Below are positions 23,757 through 41,764 of a stretch of 64,000 nt of DNA, one piece after another (position 1 is the first letter of the stretch; each line of letters starts with the position of its first letter). The notes under the pieces are model-generated. The model was not told the DNA's origin, searched no databases, and saw only the letters and a program-made list of their open reading frames with translations. The translations under genes and the position numbers were made by a program. This DNA comes from Escherichia phage allfine. The stretch lies in sequence record MN850633.1; one strand, given 5' to 3'.

Positions 23757-24863
23757 TTAGTCAGCTTTAGCGTCAGCGCGAACATCTACCAGCAACTGAG
23801 GACGGGTGCAGTATGGCAGCATGTAAGAGTGAGCTTCGAAGTCAATACCTTCGTCACGGTCTTTTTCGTATTCGAATACGTACAGTTCCTGACCAAGTGT
23901 ATTTGCATAACCCATCTTAGGACATGGACCATATGCAACTTCGAAGATGTTGTTTGCTTCACCCAGCATAGAAACGTTAGGGAAAGCATGACCAACACCA
24001 ACAGTGTCTGCTACGCTATCAATGCTCACCAGAGTGTGAACCTTACCACGCTTGTCTTTGAACTTACCGTTGTACTGGACAAACTTAACACCACCGTAGT
24101 AGAAAGTGTTCATATGAGCCTGAACGCCGTCAGTACCACCAGTTCTCAGAGAACCAGTAATCTGTTGCCAAGCCAGTGGAGTCTGCTGTGCAAGATAAGC
24201 GTCACGAATCTTAGGGTGTTTAGTCAGCTTGCTGAAGAACACACGGTCAACAACTACGTGAATTTCTTCACCGTTGATTACAGTGCCAGTCTTAGCTTCA
24301 TCTTCCATGTGCATACGCAGTTCTTCGATAGAAGCGTCGATGTCAGCATTAGGGTTGTCAAGGTCGAAGTAGATAGTCTTCTTAGTTACATCGAACTGTT
24401 TGTACAGGTCTGCGTACAGCGTACCACGAGCATCAACAACTTTACCCTTCAGAGCTTGCATAAATAGGAACTCACGAGTAATATCGAACTTGGTACGAAT
24501 CTTCATCAGCTTCTTAGCACGTACTACAGCTTCAGTAGTCAGTTCGTTTGCAGTGCCTGGCTGACGTACACCCTGAATTTCATCAGGAGTGATGCTTTCA
24601 ACTTCTTTGAAGTACATCATTGGGAAGCTGATTTGACGAACACGCTCAGGTGCGCTAGTCTCTGCTTTACGGCTATCACGGTCTACCGCATCAAGCAAGC
24701 TAACATCCCAATCAGTCAAGTCCATAAGGAAAGTAGTTTGGGTGATTGGTGCTGAACGGAACAGACCTAAGTTGGAAATATACCCATAAGTATTTGGGAT
24801 AGACTGGACTTCACCAGTCAGGTCAGCAAGGAAAAATCTGCTTTTTTCAGAATTAGTCAACAT
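23757..24863 (-). CDS. major capsid protein
   Basis: 368 aa downstream of protease and small head protein; higher GC and codon usage of a highly expressed gene. Confidence 0.6.
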   Translation of the reverse strand: MLTNSEKSRFFLADLTGEVQSIPNTYGYISNLGLFRSAPITQTTFLMDLTDWDVSLLDAVDRDSRKAETSAPERVRQISFPMMYFKEVESITPDEIQGVRQPGTANELTTEAVVRAKKLMKIRTKFDITREFLFMQALKGKVVDARGTLYADLYKQFDVTKKTIYFDLDNPNADIDASIEELRMHMEDEAKTGTVINGEEIHVVVDRVFFSKLTKHPKIRDAYLAQQTPLAWQQITGSLRTGGTDGVQAHMNTFYYGGVKFVQYNGKFKDKRGKVHTLVSIDSVADTVGVGHAFPNVSMLGEANNIFEVAYGPCPKMGYANTLGQELYVFEYEKDRDEGIDFEAHSYMLPYCTRPQLLVDVRADAKAD

Positions 24864-35841: not shown

Positions 35842-35918
35842 TGGTCTCTGTTGGAGGACTTGAACCTCCGGCCTTACCGCCCCAAACGGAACGCTCTACC
35901 AAGCTGAGCTAAACAGAG
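35842..35918 (-). tRNA. tRNA-Pro (anticodon UGG)
   Basis: T-arm GGAGG-ACTTGAA-CCTCC, acceptor CTCTGTT/AACAGAG exact, loop UUUGGGG. Confidence 0.55.
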
Positions 35919-36083: not shown

Positions 36084-37499
36084 TTACCAGATGTAACGGT
36101 CAATCATTACTGCTTTGAGCATTACGCTGATTGGGTCAAACTTCTCACCACCAAGCAGAGCTTTTAAAGTGGCTGGAGAGAACCCTGATACCATTGCTAC
36201 ACCGTTATCCTTAACAGATACTTCGCAAGTACCATTACGGTTTGCTAAGTACCAGAATACCAGTTGTGGCATCTCATATCCAGCTTTTTTGTACTTACTC
36301 TGAATTGCTTCAAAGTTTGTACGACCGTTAGCTCCATCAACCTGATTGAACTCCATATCGGAGAAGATGATAAGCTTACTTGGCATATCTTTCTGAGTCA
36401 AGTTGTTTCTTTTACCTGTTTCAAGAATGCGGTCAAAAGCTGCTTGTAAGTTAGTTGAGCCATATTCAACGTGTCGCATCACCTGACGATGACGGTTTCG
36501 TAAATCACCACTCAGTTCGATGAAGTGAGGGTTTGTTGAGTAAACCATTAACTCATTCTTAAAGCAACCAGTATTGCGTTCTGCTACATACAAGGCAAGT
36601 GATACACCAATATCAAGGGCAGTGATTGAACCAAGATTCACCCAAGACATTGAGCTTGAAACATCGGTCATACACAAGATGTTCTCACCTTCTGCCATCC
36701 AGTTTGGTAGTGCTTTCCACTGCTCATTGGCAACATCTGCATTACCATGCTTGATAGACTTAATCACATCGTATGGGTAAACAGCACCAGCGTTAATCTT
36801 AGCCTCACCCTTTGAGAGTGATTCGATGTAAGCTTTGTAACGTTCTCCATCTTTACGGTTAAAGAGCTTTTGGTAACGTGCAGCAGCGAGTGAAGGAATC
36901 TTGCTGTAGTCAATCTTACCAAACTCATTAGCAGAGATTTTTTGCTCAACTGTATCAGATAGTGCAGACAACAGTGTGCGGTACTCTTTCTCACTCAAGT
37001 TGGCAAACTTGCAGAAACGTTTTATAAACTGCTTATGACGTGGTTTGACTCGTGGTAACCACTTAGCCGCCAAACCTGCTGTTGCAGGGTCTAGTAATGC
37101 TGCTTCTAGATGTTTGAAGGCATCTGTCTCGAAACGAGTACCTACGAAGATTTTGAAGTCATCAAAACGACCAAGTTCTGCAATCTTATCCATAATGCGA
37201 AGAACCTGCGTAGGCTCTAAAACTTTGTCTTCAATCGCTTGAAGTAAAACAGTTCTGAAGGCTTTACGCTCACCCATACCTTCTCGTACATCTCGCATAT
37301 GAAGCAAAATACGAACTGCAACATCAACATCCTCACGCAAAGCTTTGTAGAACAGGTCTGGTAAGATTTCTACGTTGCTACGGCTTGAACCAGCAGCTTT
37401 GTAAAAGTCTACAAGAGCAGACATTGATGAAGTATGGTTTACAGCACCATTTTCAGTTCGACCTGCATGAAGGTGCGCATGTTTAAATAATTCGCTCAT
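36084..37499 (-). CDS. vWA-domain protein with MIDAS motif and N-terminal helical domain (Ro60/TROVE-like or DUF2828-like)
   Basis: MIDAS DxSxS present as MTDVSSSM about residue 278; about 270 aa N-terminal helical region; 471 aa. Confidence 0.55.
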   Translation of the reverse strand: MSELFKHAHLHAGRTENGAVNHTSSMSALVDFYKAAGSSRSNVEILPDLFYKALREDVDVAVRILLHMRDVREGMGERKAFRTVLLQAIEDKVLEPTQVLRIMDKIAELGRFDDFKIFVGTRFETDAFKHLEAALLDPATAGLAAKWLPRVKPRHKQFIKRFCKFANLSEKEYRTLLSALSDTVEQKISANEFGKIDYSKIPSLAAARYQKLFNRKDGERYKAYIESLSKGEAKINAGAVYPYDVIKSIKHGNADVANEQWKALPNWMAEGENILCMTDVSSSMSWVNLGSITALDIGVSLALYVAERNTGCFKNELMVYSTNPHFIELSGDLRNRHRQVMRHVEYGSTNLQAAFDRILETGKRNNLTQKDMPSKLIIFSDMEFNQVDGANGRTNFEAIQSKYKKAGYEMPQLVFWYLANRNGTCEVSVKDNGVAMVSGFSPATLKALLGGEKFDPISVMLKAVMIDRYIW

Positions 37500-38363: not shown

Positions 38364-38578
38364 AAATCGCAGATATTATAGATTTATATCAAACTGCAAA
38401 GAGTCATGGCTATATAACCTCAATTGGAAAGAATAGTCACTATGATGCTTTGACTGGAATGTATTTCAGGGCAATGGCTCAATCTAGTGAACAACACTTA
38501 ATGGTTTCTTCCAGTGAGTTTACTTCGTTTCTCTATTGCAGCAAAATTATAAATCGCAGGAGAACTGAAAAATGTTAA
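38345..38578 (+). CDS. hypothetical protein (77 aa)
   Basis: ORF in track. Confidence 0.4.
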   Translation: MCSSQLEIADIIDLYQTAKSHGYITSIGKNSHYDALTGMYFRAMAQSSEQHLMVSSSEFTSFLYCSKIINRRRTEKC

Positions 38579-39162
38579 CAGTAAGTTTTAATTACAATAG
38601 TGATGGCTCTGTATCAATTAACTCACCTTATGCAAATGACCTACTTAAAGAGCTAGTCAATCAGTGTGAGAGGGGTCTTCACTATGTTCAAAATTCTTTT
38701 AAACAGAAGACTATTGCTAATAACTTGATGCGTGTAACAGTGACGGCATCGAATCCAAATTATGACTTTGATAGCGAAAGTCCGTACTCATTAGTTGCGC
38801 TTGGAGAGAGCAGCCAATTCAAACTTGTTTGCCACGACTCAGAAACATTTCTTAAGGTATTTTCCAACCTTATCCATAATAATAAGTACAGCTACGTTGA
38901 TGGTAGTGTAAACTTCTATCCAGCAAACTATACATGTTTGTTGGTTGATAATATGAGAAAAAGTAAGCAAGAGCCTACAGAAATTTCATTTGATGTGAAC
39001 TCTAGTCCAGACGCAGAAACAAGTAAGAACTTTGATATGAGTTACGCATTGTCACTCAGTAAGAAATCCGAGTTCATTGATTATGTCAATGGATTTGGTT
39101 TTAAGTTTGATGAGAGTATGAATCTTAAAAAACTTAAGAACCTACTTAAGACCAAAGCTTAA
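38572..39162 (+). CDS. hypothetical protein (196 aa)
   Basis: ORF in track. Confidence 0.45.
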   Translation: MLTVSFNYNSDGSVSINSPYANDLLKELVNQCERGLHYVQNSFKQKTIANNLMRVTVTASNPNYDFDSESPYSLVALGESSQFKLVCHDSETFLKVFSNLIHNNKYSYVDGSVNFYPANYTCLLVDNMRKSKQEPTEISFDVNSSPDAETSKNFDMSYALSLSKKSEFIDYVNGFGFKFDESMNLKKLKNLLKTKA

Positions 39163-39209
39163 GTGTGAATAGGGGCTGATGCCCCTTTAACTATTTATAA
39201 GGATATTTA

Positions 39210-39581
39210 ATGAAAGCTAAGAGTGCAAAAGACTTTTATTGCTTCCTACAATCCTATATCAATTCCGTGCAAAATGGTGAAAGGTACAACCTTAATGATG
39301 TTATCCCAACACCTTTGACATGGAGACTCAGTAAATGGCCTGAAGAAGATATTACACCAACAAGCGAACAGCGTACCTACAAACCTGAAATCAATATTCC
39401 AGATTCTGAGAATCTATTATATCCAATGTTCCATATCGTTGGTCTTGGAAGATTCCTTATGGATATCCAGTATGTAATTGGTAAAGGTTATAAGGTTAAA
39501 GTTATTGTTGTTGGTGATGTATCTCCGCATCACAAAGGTTATTTTAGACTAAACGCACATTTAGAGGCTAAAAAGAAATGA
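39210..39581 (+). CDS. hypothetical protein, paralog of N-terminal domain of next gene
   Basis: Alignable by eye to N-terminus of 39578-40462 (shared W-P-E-x-D-I and F-x-M-D-x-Q-Y segments). Confidence 0.45.
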   Translation: MKAKSAKDFYCFLQSYINSVQNGERYNLNDVIPTPLTWRLSKWPEEDITPTSEQRTYKPEINIPDSENLLYPMFHIVGLGRFLMDIQYVIGKGYKVKVIVVGDVSPHHKGYFRLNAHLEAKKK

Positions 39582-40462
39582 TTAAAGCAAAGACTTACCC
39601 AGACTTCAAAGAGTTTGTGAAGGGTTTCATTGCAAATGTAAAGGCTGGTAAGAGATATGATTTTAGAACATATCAAGAGGCTATTTTACCACTTACCTAT
39701 AGTTCATATTGGCCTGAAGCTGATATTGCAGAAGTTGAGAAGTTTGACTACAAACCAGACTACAAAGTTCCATTTAGTGATGAATTGCTTTACAGTGTTG
39801 GTGCACAGATGAGAACTGCTGATTTCTTCATGGATTTGCAGTATGCAATCATCAATGGTAAAGATGTTGACACAATTTACTGTGAATGGTTGGCAAGAGT
39901 TAAGCCGTTCTCAATGTTGAATGCTAAGTTGAAGGATGCTATTAAGCCACCATCAATTACTCAGCAACCAACAGGTCAAACAGTCAATGAGGGTGGCACA
40001 CTTACTCTAAGCATTCTAGCAACTAACGCCACTGGATATCAATGGAAAAAGGATGGTGAGGACATCCCTAGTGCCAATTCTGCAACTTACACAAAACAGT
40101 CAGTAGCACCTTCTGACGCTGGTTCATACACTTGTGTTGTATCTGGAGAGGGTGGAACAAGTGTTACCTCAGATGCAGCAACAGTTACTGTGAATGCACT
40201 TCCAGTAATCACTCAACAGCCAACCAATCAAGAAATCACTGAAGGTGATACCTTAACGCTGAATGTTGTGGCAACAGGTGCAACAAGTTACCAGTGGAAG
40301 AAAGGTGAGGAAGACATCCTCGATGCAACTACTGCAACTTACACCAAAGAAGGTGCAACCGCTGCTGATTCAGGAAGCTACACCTGTGTAGTTACTGGTG
40401 CAGGTGGCTCTGTAACATCTAACGCAGCAACAGTTACAGTTAATCCAGCAGGGGAGGCATAA
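39578..40462 (+). CDS. protein with two tandem Ig-like domains
   Basis: Two ~85 aa repeats each containing ITQQPT...GxTLTL...YQWKK...TATYTK...DSGSYTCVV...ATVTVN, an Ig-like strand pattern. Confidence 0.55.
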   Translation: MIKAKTYPDFKEFVKGFIANVKAGKRYDFRTYQEAILPLTYSSYWPEADIAEVEKFDYKPDYKVPFSDELLYSVGAQMRTADFFMDLQYAIINGKDVDTIYCEWLARVKPFSMLNAKLKDAIKPPSITQQPTGQTVNEGGTLTLSILATNATGYQWKKDGEDIPSANSATYTKQSVAPSDAGSYTCVVSGEGGTSVTSDAATVTVNALPVITQQPTNQEITEGDTLTLNVVATGATSYQWKKGEEDILDATTATYTKEGATAADSGSYTCVVTGAGGSVTSNAATVTVNPAGEA

Positions 40463-40926
40463 TGCAACTCTCAAGAAAAGGTTTAGAGGCTATTAAGTTC
40501 TTTGAAGGTCTGAAGTTAGAGGCTTACGAAGACTCTGCCGGAATCCCAACAATCGGTTATGGAACAATCCGTATTGGTGGGAAGCCTGTTAAGATGGGTA
40601 TGAAAATTACGGCTGAACAAGCTGAACAGTATCTTCTTGCAGATGTTGAAAAATTCGTTGCAGCAGTTAACAAAGCTATCAAGGTTCCAACTTCTCAGAA
40701 TGAGTTTGATGCACTTGTAAGTGAAACATACAACATTGGTATCACGGCTATGCAGGACTCCACATTTATCAAGCGCCACAATGCTGGTAATAAGGTTGGT
40801 TGTGCAGAAGCTATGCAGTGGTGGAACAAGGTCACAGTCAAAGGTAAGAAGGTCACTTCAAACGGCCTGAAAAACAGACGTAGAATGGAAGCTGACATTT
40901 ATCTTGACAGTGTATATCCAAAGTAA
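40462..40926 (+). CDS. endolysin, GH24 (T4-type) lysozyme
   Basis: N-terminal GLKLEAYEDSAGIPTIGYG catalytic region of phage lysozymes. Confidence 0.75.
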   Translation: MQLSRKGLEAIKFFEGLKLEAYEDSAGIPTIGYGTIRIGGKPVKMGMKITAEQAEQYLLADVEKFVAAVNKAIKVPTSQNEFDALVSETYNIGITAMQDSTFIKRHNAGNKVGCAEAMQWWNKVTVKGKKVTSNGLKNRRRMEADIYLDSVYPK

Positions 40927-40935
40927 TATCTTCAT

Positions 40936-40960
40936 AGGCTCCTTCGGGAGCCTTTTTTAT
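40936..40960 (+). terminator. intrinsic terminator after endolysin
   Basis: GGCTCC-TTCG-GGAGCC followed by TTTTTTATTTT. Confidence 0.6.
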
Positions 40961-40977
40961 TTTCTAAGGAGAAAACT

Positions 40978-41376
40978 ATGAAGCTTTGGGCTAGTGACTT
41001 TGGGACTTTTAAGTACACTCGTGATGGTTCAATGGTGAGAATTATTGGCAGCCAGATTGTAGTAATGGGTGATGAGGTTTGTACAAAGTTCACTGTAGAG
41101 TTAGCTGAACTATCACCTATTACCCGTGCTAAGAATGGGTTTTTCAGGTTCGAGACTTACAAAGTAGATGAGTACGGGAGGTTCAACCCTCTTGGAGAGA
41201 GTGGATTAGATATTATTTCTGAACACCCATTGACAGCAGAGCAATTGTCAGGTTATTATAAAACTCTACTTGAAAGAGAGTTAGCAACCCATGAGTGTGA
41301 AGCAAAATACCACATAGAGCGTTGTGAAACTCTCAAAGAAAAGATAAAACTAGCAGAGAGAGGTTTTTATGAATAA
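40978..41376 (+). CDS. hypothetical protein (132 aa)
   Basis: ORF in track. Confidence 0.45.
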   Translation: MKLWASDFGTFKYTRDGSMVRIIGSQIVVMGDEVCTKFTVELAELSPITRAKNGFFRFETYKVDEYGRFNPLGESGLDIISEHPLTAEQLSGYYKTLLERELATHECEAKYHIERCETLKEKIKLAERGFYE

Positions 41377-41764
41377 TAACAGTCATATCCATGTTAAAGT
41401 TGATGTCAGTCGTTACAGCGAAAATGAGGAACTAGACCTGCAAGATGCTCTTCTCTTTGAGAAGAATGGCAATCTTCATTTGCATTTTGAAGGTACGAAT
41501 ACATATCTCCACAGATGCCGAGATGATGCAGACGGTTGTCCTGTTTTTGCTTGGTATAATTTAGAGTTTCCTCTTTATGCAATCCACTATCCAGATGGTG
41601 GAGAAGACTGGACAACTCAATCAATCTTTGATGAGCTTAATGGTGTTCCCGTTGAGCAAGAAGAGCAAGAACCTGTTGAACTTACATTCACTTTTATCAA
41701 AGAAGAGAAAGTAGGTGACTTGTCAGTAACTGAAGCAATTCAAGTCTCACAGGTTATTCGTTAA
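41369..41764 (+). CDS. hypothetical protein (131 aa)
   Basis: ORF in track. Confidence 0.45.
   Translation: MNNNSHIHVKVDVSRYSENEELDLQDALLFEKNGNLHLHFEGTNTYLHRCRDDADGCPVFAWYNLEFPLYAIHYPDGGEDWTTQSIFDELNGVPVEQEEQEPVELTFTFIKEEKVGDLSVTEAIQVSQVIR

Follow-up and report, generated by a model that had tools for sequence, protein, structure and literature searches.

The closest described counterparts of the protein studied here are the hexamer decoration proteins (Hex-Dec) of Escherichia phage JohannRWettstein (Bas63; 9NCF_S) and of the Mooglevirus Shigella phage Sf14 (gp20; 9C2D_S). [quoted passage not shown] In Sf14 gp20, whose CapBD spans aa 1 to 118, Arg79 and Arg107 form salt bridges with Asp221 of the capsid protein (PMC11821841). 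The Bas63 protein carries four Ig units and the Sf14 protein three; the Ig count is variable, and its range of one to four units across the genus is published. A further member, Felix O1 gp36, was found in purified virions by mass spectrometry (MS) in 2010, with 14 peptides and 44% coverage (PMC3185647), and Sf14 gp20 has likewise been detected by virion MS (PMC11821841). According to the Bas63 paper of 2025, the Hex-Dec gene lies “more than 10 kb outside of the structural module” (PMC12609058).

Like Hex-Dec, T4 Hoc decorates hexamer centers as a monomer and bears several acidic Ig-like domains in a row. This nonessential protein has been proposed as a functional analog of Hex-Dec in adhesion and aggregation. 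Unlike Hex-Dec, it has its capsid-binding domain at the C terminus, i.e., in reversed order, and with a distinct topology (PMC12609058), and it is present on every hexamer of the T4 head, whereas the Hex-Dec orthologs occupy only the 60 pentamer-proximal ones. T5 pb10 (PDB 5LXK and 8ZVI) has a single Ig domain that is detectably similar to the Ig domains of Hex-Dec (E = 2e-12 to 3e-12). A profile search detected homologous CapBDs (E = 2e-10 to 8e-5) in gp38 of the Kolesnikvirus group (Erwinia phage phiEa104/phiEa21-4) and in proteins from myophages of Pectobacterium and Yersinia. In phiEa104, too, the gene immediately precedes that of the endolysin. In these Kolesnikvirus-type proteins, the display module, as read from the sequence, would be a Big_2-type domain or a Lys-rich tail and not an I-set Ig domain, and the Kolesnikvirus, Pectobacterium, and Yersinia genomes have one CapBD copy each and no paralog. 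A CapBD profile search of 1.84 billion representatives returned only 12 clusters, and outside the Ounavirinae, the domain occurs only in a few related enterobacterial myophages of ∼90 kb.

Results

The window, by which we mean the whole 64,000-nt stretch of Escherichia phage allfine analyzed here (MN850633.1), is a Felixounavirus genome with 92 to 98% identity to many Felix O1-like phages. The locus comprises two open reading frames (ORFs) whose coordinates were confirmed, one of 123 aa at positions 39210 to 39581 and one of 294 aa at positions 39578 to 40462, both on the plus strand and joined by a stop/start overlap (ATGA). The stop codon of the 294-aa ORF in turn overlaps by one base (TAATG) the start of the next ORF (40462 to 40926, plus strand), which encodes a T4-lysozyme-type endolysin, Felix O1 gp35 (Phage_lysozyme, Pfam PF00959, E = 6.7e-41; phrog_7, endolysin). 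The preliminary description had placed the Ig-like protein directly upstream of the endolysin, and this was correct.

The three genes form a cassette between two terminators. Its left boundary, between a 196-aa ORF and the 123-aa ORF, is a G+C-rich hairpin read from the sequence as a putative rho-independent terminator (39171 to 39188, plus strand; A-GGGGC-TGAT-GCCCC-T and then TT). The terminator consensus scan did not call this hairpin because of its short T-run; in the Felix O1 paper, Table 2 includes this sequence among the terminators (dG −10.9). On the right, the cassette is closed by a strong intrinsic terminator found by the scan (40936 to 40953, plus strand), with a 7-bp stem containing five G-C pairs and a T-run. 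Promoter searches were uninformative, as the late-promoter-like motif CTATTTATAAG upstream of the 123-aa ORF had two matches versus 2.1 expected by chance and a sigma-70 scan yielded fewer sites than in shuffled sequences.

The same synteny is present in Felix O1, pinkbiff, ESCO49, Sf13, CHB7, Moogle, EC6, and phiEa104. The structural genes of the window lie on the minus strand, at about 7.7 to 30.6 kb, and the conserved Hex-Dec locus is outside this module, directly upstream of the endolysin gene. The displaced map position is real, but it is already in print.

The 294-aa ORF encodes the ortholog of Bas63 Hex-Dec, Felix O1 gp36, and Sf14 gp20, a Hoc-like decoration protein. In a phmmer search of the PDB, the protein matched 9NCF_S over residues 1 to 289 (E = 8.8e-245) and 9C2D_S (E = 1.4e-166), and its model gave a Foldseek TM score of 0.81 against 9NCF_S, normalized to the target. 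Its CapBD (aa 1 to 123; 39578 to 39946, plus strand) is ∼97% identical to residues 1 to 122 of 9NCF_S, which is encoded at the same locus, and about 88% identical to the CapBD of Sf14 gp20. Both Arg79 and Arg107 are present in the translation; in the Hex-Dec alignment, R79 is invariant and R107 occurs in 90% or more of the sequences. The binding partner, the major capsid protein (368 aa; 23757 to 24863, minus strand), is nearly the same as that of Bas63, differing from 9NCF_A at a handful of positions (E = 8.6e-248) and retaining D221 in the alignment. No Pfam family matched residues 1 to 120, and the “Hoc-like” PHROG matches were confined to residues 120 to 292. The CapBD has no detectable sequence similarity to the capsid-binding domain of T4 Hoc, and neither it nor the 123-aa protein has sequence similarity to that of T5 pb10.

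Carried over from the orthologs, the virion location of the window protein would be on the hexamers. The CapBD (∼120 aa, largely helical, and pseudo-two-fold) would dock as a monomer in the centers of the 60 pentamer-proximal hexamers, with Arg79 and Arg107 anchoring it to Asp221 on three of the six capsid subunits, and the two acidic, I-set-like Ig domains would extend outward as a flexible fiber. By analogy with T4 Hoc and T5 pb10, these domains probably mediate weak attachment to surfaces, mucus, or cells or else control particle aggregation. There is no evidence contrary to the identification as Hex-Dec.

The C-terminal part of the protein consists of two Ig-like repeats, as the preliminary description had read from the strand pattern. 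Residues ∼124 to 290 matched Pfam Ig_3 (E = 1.4e-23), Ig_2 (E = 1.6e-18), and I-set (E = 3.8e-16), in two stretches each. The AlphaFold2 model had a pLDDT of 95 to 97 over residues 121 to 290, and a Foldseek search with it retrieved tandem Ig structures (Robo, MuSK, and titin; E = 1e-12 to 1e-14). Domain 1 corresponds to aa ∼124 to 207 (39947 to 40198, plus strand), and domain 2 corresponds to aa ∼208 to 290, with a short tail and the stop codon completing the segment (40199 to 40462, plus strand). The Ig part has a pI of 4.05. With its two units, the window protein differs from T5 pb10, with one, and from Sf14 gp20, which has three and belongs to another genus. The expected role of such domains as surface-exposed modules fits capsid decoration; only the gene is displaced.

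The two repeats have 54 of 84 aa in common (64%) and, in a codon-aware alignment, 64.7% of their bases. An ungapped comparison is thrown off by a 1-aa indel and yields a misleading 40.6% nucleotide identity. For adjacent 249-mers drawn at random from the window, ungapped identity is 27% ± 3%. Synonymous sites are saturated between the repeats (pS, 0.72), and a repeat search recovered only short seeds at a spacing of 249 (e.g., 37 nt at 78%). Tandem Repeats Finder, run on positions 38500 to 41500 with a minimum score of 30, returned no rows because the duplication is too old. The tandem duplication claimed earlier at the DNA level is thus real, as the shared bases attest, but it is old and not of a kind that such a program sees.

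Comparison with the four-unit protein of Bas63 and pinkbiff identified Ig domain 1 as unit 1 (89% identity) and Ig domain 2 as unit 4, the last (95% identity). Unit-by-unit identities across the locus revealed Ig1/Ig4, Ig2/Ig4, and Ig1/Ig2 chimeras, several with their junction at GYQWKK. In a 60-record sample, locus spans varied by about ±250 and about +500 bp, with the Ig counts derived from these megablast spans being indirect estimates. The pattern shows what appears to be in-register unequal recombination between repeats, which would change the Ig copy number while the ends of the first and last repeats are always kept. The variation from one to four units, together with a split Hex-Dec gene in phage Z31, suggests that the Ig part may be dispensable. 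A search for protein clusters with the CapBD found 210-aa (one-Ig) clusters almost exclusively and did not recover paralogs, which makes it unfit for a census.

The 123-aa ORF (Felix O1 ORF37; phrog_4463) encodes a stand-alone CapBD fold without Ig domains. The preliminary description had proposed that it shares a domain with the N terminus of the 294-aa protein, and the two are indeed 38% identical over 101 aa within the N-terminal ∼120 aa (BLASTP E = 2e-16). The 123-aa protein also matched 9NCF_S directly (phmmer E = 8.6e-12). Its model, of moderate confidence (pLDDT, 66.7; pTM, 0.69), matched only 9NCF_S and 9C2D_S in the PDB (TM score, 0.69 to 0.72; probability, 1.0), the next match having an E value of 1, and T5 pb10 was not among the top 50 Foldseek hits. 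In all lineages the paralog ends after the CapBD, at 122 to 124 aa, and has no C-terminal display module. The ORF is intact in Felixounavirus, Mooglevirus, Suspvirus, and an uncultured lineage (P0098).

The paralog differs from the CapBD in the residues that anchor the latter to the capsid. The R79 column is Gly and the R107 column His or Gln in all 14 aligned paralogs, and the divergent P0098 paralog likewise has no Arg at the R79 column. The loss of both arginines disfavors hexamer-center binding of the gp20 type and leaves the term “capsid-associated” weakly founded. When the paralogs were aligned with the CapBDs, 30 columns were invariant in both groups and another 31 were invariant but different. 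The paralog has long invariant stretches of its own, e.g., LLYPMFHIVGLG.FLMDIQ, and a pI of 9.1 versus 6.3 for the CapBD; its best-conserved part is the equivalent of the capsid-contacting R79 loop and helix. The paralog dN/dS ratio is 0.12 to 0.19 at a dS of 0.66 to 1.3, compared with 0.01 to 0.05 for the CapBD, and its nonsynonymous evolution is two to three times faster. Judged by these ratios, the paralog is evidently under purifying selection in the three genera.

About 233 of the 252 matching phage records contain the paralog, and in about 19 it is deleted. In REP5, CECAV_041, and Z31, it is a pseudogene, with an internal deletion and no start codon. As phages without the paralog are viable, any role that it has is dispensable in culture. 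In Felix O1, expression of ORF36 and ORF37 is maximal at 60 min, and the neighboring ORFs 35 and 38 peak at 25 min (Felix O1 paper). The virion MS list of Felix O1, cut at 25% coverage, does not include gp37 (PMC3185647), and the text of the VpaE1 paper does not place the paralog among the virion proteins of that phage. Sf14 encodes the paralog; it is neither modeled nor mentioned in the Bas63 and Sf14 cryo-EM papers (PMC12609058, PMC11821841) or in the Sf14 supplement. A conserved, late-expressed CapBD copy without the anchoring arginines, the paralog is the only part of the locus that has no earlier report.

Discussion

The locus as a whole is very probably explained by a 294-aa Felixounavirus hexamer decoration protein and, upstream of it, an old duplication of the CapBD alone. 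Most GenBank records annotate the 294-aa product instead as “tail protein,” “major tail protein,” or “HK97 major tail subunit,” and phrog_3995, labeled “tail protein,” and weaker matches to major-tail-protein PHROGs agree with them. These PHROG matches are, however, confined to the Ig domains (stretches within 120 to 292), which are common to many phage tail and head proteins. Two cryo-EM structures show the orthologs on the capsid and refute a tail location for them, and the Bas63 paper explicitly calls the tail annotation wrong (PMC12609058), so that a tail protein or major tail subunit is scarcely credible here. The preliminary description had hinted at a nonstructural Ig protein. Such a protein might work with the endolysin in lysis, for example, by binding the cell envelope. 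The one-base overlap with the endolysin start, the shared cassette between two terminators, and an adjacency that holds even in Kolesnikvirus all speak for such a role. Yet the ortholog sits on the capsid by cryo-EM, and the virion proteomics named in that description as a check places Felix O1 gp36 in virions (44% coverage) (PMC3185647). Expression in Felix O1 also peaks later than that of the lysin (60 versus 25 min), and neither a signal peptide nor a membrane segment is evident from reading the 294-aa sequence. A part in lysis is highly improbable; the adjacency is conserved subfamily synteny with no functional link to lysis, and the endolysin is a mere neighbor. Ig domains are sometimes joined to phage structural proteins through frameshifting. 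In the window, the sequence GCT AAA AAG AAA TGA would allow a −1 slip on AAG, at an AAAAAG run two codons before the paralog stop, into the frame of the Hex-Dec ATG, giving a fused decoration protein with two CapBDs. The slippery run is not conserved, reading gctaaaagaa in ESCO49, gctaagaa in Moogle and Sf13, and gctaataaaa in CHB7, and the relative frame of the two genes varies by lineage, with 4-nt and 8-nt overlaps. The element that is conserved near the paralog stop is the GAGG ribosome-binding site of Hex-Dec, and the Felix O1 virion list gives gp36 a calculated mass of 31.6 kDa, that of the unfused protein, and contains no peptides of gp37 (PMC3185647). Since neither the run nor the frame is conserved, the fusion was rejected, and we give it almost no credence.

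For the paralog, one alternative is a second, Ig-less decoration protein that caps the 20 true three-fold hexamers left empty by Hex-Dec or binds procapsid hexamers transiently. The modeled fold, which appears to be that of the CapBD, would suit this, as would late expression with coupling to Hex-Dec, a basic protein (pI 9.1) facing an acidic hexamer center, and a most-conserved region equivalent to the R79 loop and helix. The three-fold hexamers also present a different Asp221 geometry (PMC11821841), and icosahedral averaging would blur a monomer that sits on a true three-fold axis. However, neither structure paper describes density on these hexamers (PMC12609058, PMC11821841), the protein is missing from the Felix O1 virion MS and, going by the text, from the VpaE1 virion proteins, both anchoring arginines are lost, and the gene is deleted in viable phages, which together make a second decoration protein quite unlikely. 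A decaying, functionless duplicate would account for the losses by deletion and start-codon loss in about 19 of 252 records and for nonsynonymous change two to three times faster than that in the CapBD. It is nevertheless very unlikely, as the ORF has stayed intact at 122 to 124 aa in Felixounavirus, Mooglevirus, Suspvirus, and P0098, dN/dS remains at 0.12 to 0.19 over saturated synonymous divergence, and the paralog has its own extended invariant segments, among them the one given above.

We tentatively regard the paralog as most likely a nonessential accessory of head morphogenesis that is nonvirion or substoichiometric. It is an old duplication of the capsid-binding domain alone, is expressed late with Hex-Dec, with translational coupling to it being probable, and keeps the fold while both anchoring arginines are replaced and the surface is different and strongly conserved. 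Such a protein might touch the capsid protein or Hex-Dec in another way or bind another state of the capsid.

Hex-Dec itself is already known biology, and the main feature of the locus adds nothing new to it, except that “Hoc-like hexamer decoration protein” should replace the common but incorrect label “tail protein.” The paralog and the mechanism of Ig copy-number change are modest additions for phage structural biologists and users of display scaffolds. In-register recombination answers the question of gain or loss that the Sf14 paper left open, and the natural deletion lineages REP5, CECAV_041, and Z31 are ready-made controls for the paralog. It is unlikely that the paralog is an unrecognized head protein, whether as an Ig-less protein capping the 20 true three-fold hexamers or as a transient procapsid or maturation factor. 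As a cap, it would have been smeared out by the icosahedral averaging and have escaped shotgun MS; if it is a procapsid or maturation factor, it could restrict the loading of Hex-Dec to the 60 pentamer-proximal hexamers.

Identity of the 294-aa protein

The 294-aa open reading frame (ORF; positions 39578 to 40462, plus strand) is preceded by a 123-aa ORF (39210 to 39581, plus strand; junction ATGA, a 4-nt overlap). As the preliminary description stated, it lies directly upstream of an endolysin gene (154 aa; 40462 to 40926, plus strand; junction TAATG, a 1-nt overlap), whose product is of the T4 lysozyme type by Pfam and PHROG. A hairpin included in the terminator list of the Felix O1 paper lies 5′ of the 123-aa ORF, and a strong terminator lies 3′ of the lysin gene. 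The N-terminal regions of the two proteins are paralogous (38% identity over 101 aa; E = 2e-16), as was also claimed before, and a Pfam search gave no match in residues 1 to 120 of the longer protein or in the 123-aa ORF.

Residues ∼124 to 290 of the 294-aa protein form two Ig domains (Pfam Ig_3, E = 1.4e-23; Ig_2, 1.6e-18; I-set, 3.8e-16). The Ig-like fold proposed for both repeats is thus predicted by Pfam and by an AlphaFold2 model (pLDDT of 95 to 97 over both repeats) that resembles tandem Ig structures in the PDB. The two domains are acidic (pI 4.05) and well folded in this model. Between the two repeats, 64% of residues and, in a codon alignment, 64.7% of bases are identical, and synonymous sites are saturated. 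TRF detected nothing for this duplication, and a DNA repeat search found short seeds only, at a spacing of 249. The duplication is therefore visible in the DNA, as first noticed, yet ancient.

In a sequence search of the PDB, two chains matched the 294-aa protein over nearly its full length. One, from phage Bas63, is 9NCF chain S (E = 8.8e-245), entered as “Immunoglobulin-like domain protein”; the other, from Shigella phage Sf14, is 9C2D chain S (E = 1.4e-166), entered as “tail protein.” Two 2025 cryo-EM papers describe these as hexamer decoration proteins (PMC12609058, PMC11821841). The Bas63 protein, Hex-Dec, is an ordered monomer from which four predicted, not resolved Ig domains reach outward; one to three are predicted for other felixounaviruses, and the annotation “tail protein” was judged incorrect (PMC12609058). 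The Sf14 orthologue, gp20, was detected by mass spectrometry (MS) and occupies pentamer-proximal hexamers only, leaving the true three-fold hexamers vacant. Its capsid-binding domain (CapBD) comprises the first 118 residues, with Arg79 and Arg107 forming salt bridges to Asp221 in three of the six capsid subunits (PMC11821841). In Felix O1, the counterpart gp36 was found in CsCl-purified virions in 2010 (14 peptides; 44% coverage) (PMC3185647).

The CapBD encoded in the window is about 97% identical to that of the Bas63 chain and has both R79 and R107, and the major capsid protein (23757 to 24863, minus strand; E = 8.6e-248 to the Bas63 capsid protein) keeps D221. The 294-aa protein shows every feature of the Ounavirinae Hex-Dec/gp20 family that sequence and model can reveal and is a member of that family. 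Since its orthologues sit on the capsid and gp36 is present in Felix O1 virions, it is very probably a virion component, and the earlier hint that it might be nonstructural is not supported; it is a capsid decoration protein already solved and published. By orthology to the solved structures, the CapBD would plug the hexamer center, with both arginines anchoring onto the Asp221 ring. The Ig fiber may provide weak adhesion or modulate aggregation, a role proposed in both structure papers and drawn here from T4 Hoc and T5 pb10.

Genomic setting and relatives

A nucleotide search with a 3-kb stretch around the locus matched 250 phage records, 232 of which covered at least 80% of it; the best were 92 to 95% identical along its whole length. 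Nearly all are Felixounavirus or other Ounavirinae, with Escherichia, Salmonella, Shigella, and Citrobacter as hosts. A tighter 1.7-kb query gave 98.6% identity with Escherichia phage LinBro and 93.4% with Felix O1, where the counterparts are ORF37 (NP_944851, “hypothetical”), ORF36 (gene 12, NP_944848, “tail protein”), and then ORF35, the endolysin. A Felix O1-type locus (92% identity) also occurs at 141269 to 144266 of GU169904.1, labeled as the 147-kb “Staphylococcus phage SA1,” which suggests a chimeric or contaminated assembly.

The Bas63 gene sits “more than 10 kb outside of the structural module” (PMC12609058), and the order Hex-Dec to endolysin is also found in Mooglevirus, Suspvirus, and even Kolesnikvirus; the subfamily is already known for this unusual map position. 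As in Felix O1, a tRNA cluster (24 matches at the Rfam gathering score; 31008 to 35918, minus strand) separates the structural module from the Hex-Dec locus. Directly adjoining it is a gene (36084 to 37499, minus strand) whose 471-aa product contains DUF2828 and DUF7788 domains and is labeled “RNA-binding protein” by PHROG and vWFA in some records. Two genes past the endolysin, a 131-aa ORF (41369 to 41764, plus strand) is called “D-alanyl-D-alanine carboxypeptidase” in many relatives. This annotation looks unsupported, as the ORF had no Pfam match at E ≤ 0.01 and its sole PHROG match is of unknown function.

Recombination within the Ig array

Across a spread sample of 60 records, some loci were longer than that of the window, by about 249 or 500 bp, and others were shorter by about 250 bp; annotated Hex-Dec lengths are 210, 294, 377, and 461 aa. 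The spans in this sample give an indirect, rough estimate of 16 loci with one Ig domain, 24 with two, 13 with three, and 2 with four. For a unit-by-unit comparison, we used the four units of pinkbiff (Bas63 type) as the reference. The window units correspond to unit 1 (89%) and unit 4 (95%). The second Felix O1 unit joins the N-terminal half of unit 2 to the C-terminal half of unit 4, and the lone EC6 unit joins the corresponding halves of units 1 and 4 at GYQWKK; REP5 and CECAV_041 carry further mosaics. Mosaic units were seen at window positions 39947 to 40450 and in loci L001 to L003, L005, L007, and L011, with several junctions at the conserved GYQWKK. These mosaics indicate that copy number (one to four) is altered by in-register unequal recombination between repeats, keeping the ends of the first and last units. 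Whether Ig domains were gained or lost was left undecided in the Sf14 paper (PMC11821841), and we did not find this mechanism stated in either structure paper (PMC12609058, PMC11821841); the mosaic is a small, checkable addition.

In Shigella phage Z31, Hex-Dec (locus L004, 2998 to 3570) is annotated as two ORFs of 405 and 168 nt, suggesting that its only Ig domain contains a frameshift. Either the record has a sequencing error or Z31 naturally makes a decoration protein consisting of the CapBD alone.

The stand-alone CapBD paralogue

The 123-aa paralogue is the only part of the locus without coverage in the literature searched: we found no relevant passage in the Bas63 or Sf14 structure paper or the Sf14 supplement (PMC12609058, PMC11821841). 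Sequence searches identify it as a CapBD homologue, and its model (pLDDT 66.7; pTM 0.69) matched only 9NCF_S and 9C2D_S in Foldseek (TM 0.70; probability 1.0; next match, E = 1), so that a CapBD fold is predicted. The gene is intact (122 to 124 aa) in Felixounavirus, Mooglevirus, and Suspvirus, and a more divergent stand-alone copy from uncultured material (P0098) is 48% identical to the Mooglevirus copies. Its dN/dS is 0.12 to 0.19 (dS, 0.66 to 1.3), versus 0.01 to 0.05 for the Hex-Dec CapBD; one close pair (ESCO49) gave 0.55, but with a dS of just 0.08. When paralogues and CapBDs were aligned, 30 columns were invariant in both groups, mostly in the core (WPE.DI, LLY, F.MD.Q), and 31 further columns were fixed within each group but different between them. 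All aligned paralogues have Gly in place of R79 and His or Gln in place of R107, so both anchors are gone, and the protein is basic (pI 9.1 versus 6.3 for the CapBD). We rejected a frameshift that would fuse both ORFs at the AAAAAG run at their junction, because the run and the relative frame both vary between lineages.

In Felix O1, transcription of ORF36 and ORF37 is maximal at 60 min, together with the tail fiber genes, whereas the neighbors on either side, ORF35 and ORF38, reach their maximum at 25 min; the virion MS list lacks gp37 (PMC3185647). By the text of the VpaE1 virion MS study, a search of all ORFs of >50 codons added only gp54, gp58, and gp68 to the Felix O1 set. These two proteomes, the reported lack of density on the three-fold hexamers, and the loss of both arginines all speak against the more interesting alternative that the paralogue caps the 20 vacant three-fold hexamers or acts on procapsids. 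We consider this improbable, even though averaging would erase a monomer bound on a true three-fold axis, and a 25% coverage cut could miss a 14-kDa protein present in 20 copies. Most simply, and with low confidence, the paralogue would be a nonessential accessory of head morphogenesis: selected, late, and probably translationally coupled, with a CapBD fold whose remodeled surface would bind either the capsid protein or Hex-Dec in another manner than Hex-Dec does.

In REP5 (L007, 1664 to 1855), vB_CECAV_041 (L005, 2813 to 2997), and Z31 (L004, 2806 to 2997), the paralogue is reduced to ∼70 nt of the 5′ end, without the start codon, and ∼75 nt of the 3′ end. The shared ∼230-nt internal deletion and start codon loss mark one felixounavirus sublineage, and the 3′ remnant holds GAGG, the ribosome-binding site for Hex-Dec. 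In about 19 of 252 records, a weak cross-match to Hex-Dec is all that appears in place of the paralogue. Because it is deleted in these phages, the paralogue is dispensable for plaque formation; its description is, again, a small and checkable addition.

Comparison with other decoration proteins

T4 Hoc works in a similar way, but the 294-aa protein does not belong to its family, as the capsid-binding domain of Hoc is unrelated and at the opposite end. T5 pb10 has the same order of parts, with relatedness detectable in the Ig domain only (E of about 2e-12 to 3e-12). CapBD proteins form a very small family: when 1.84 billion representatives were searched with a profile, 12 clusters at 50% identity matched. 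In Kolesnikvirus and in the Pectobacterium and Yersinia relatives, a single CapBD gene is present. Distant homologues in Erwinia phage phiEa104 (L008, 2501 to 3115) and in P0100 to P0104 carry other display modules, a Lys-rich low-complexity tail in P0104 and Big_2-like domains in others of this set. From our reading of the sequences, display modules in the family thus vary among I-set Ig domains, Big_2-like domains, and a Lys-rich tail, which suggests that the capsid plug serves enterobacterial myophages of ∼85 to 92 kb as a portable anchor that can bear different surface modules.
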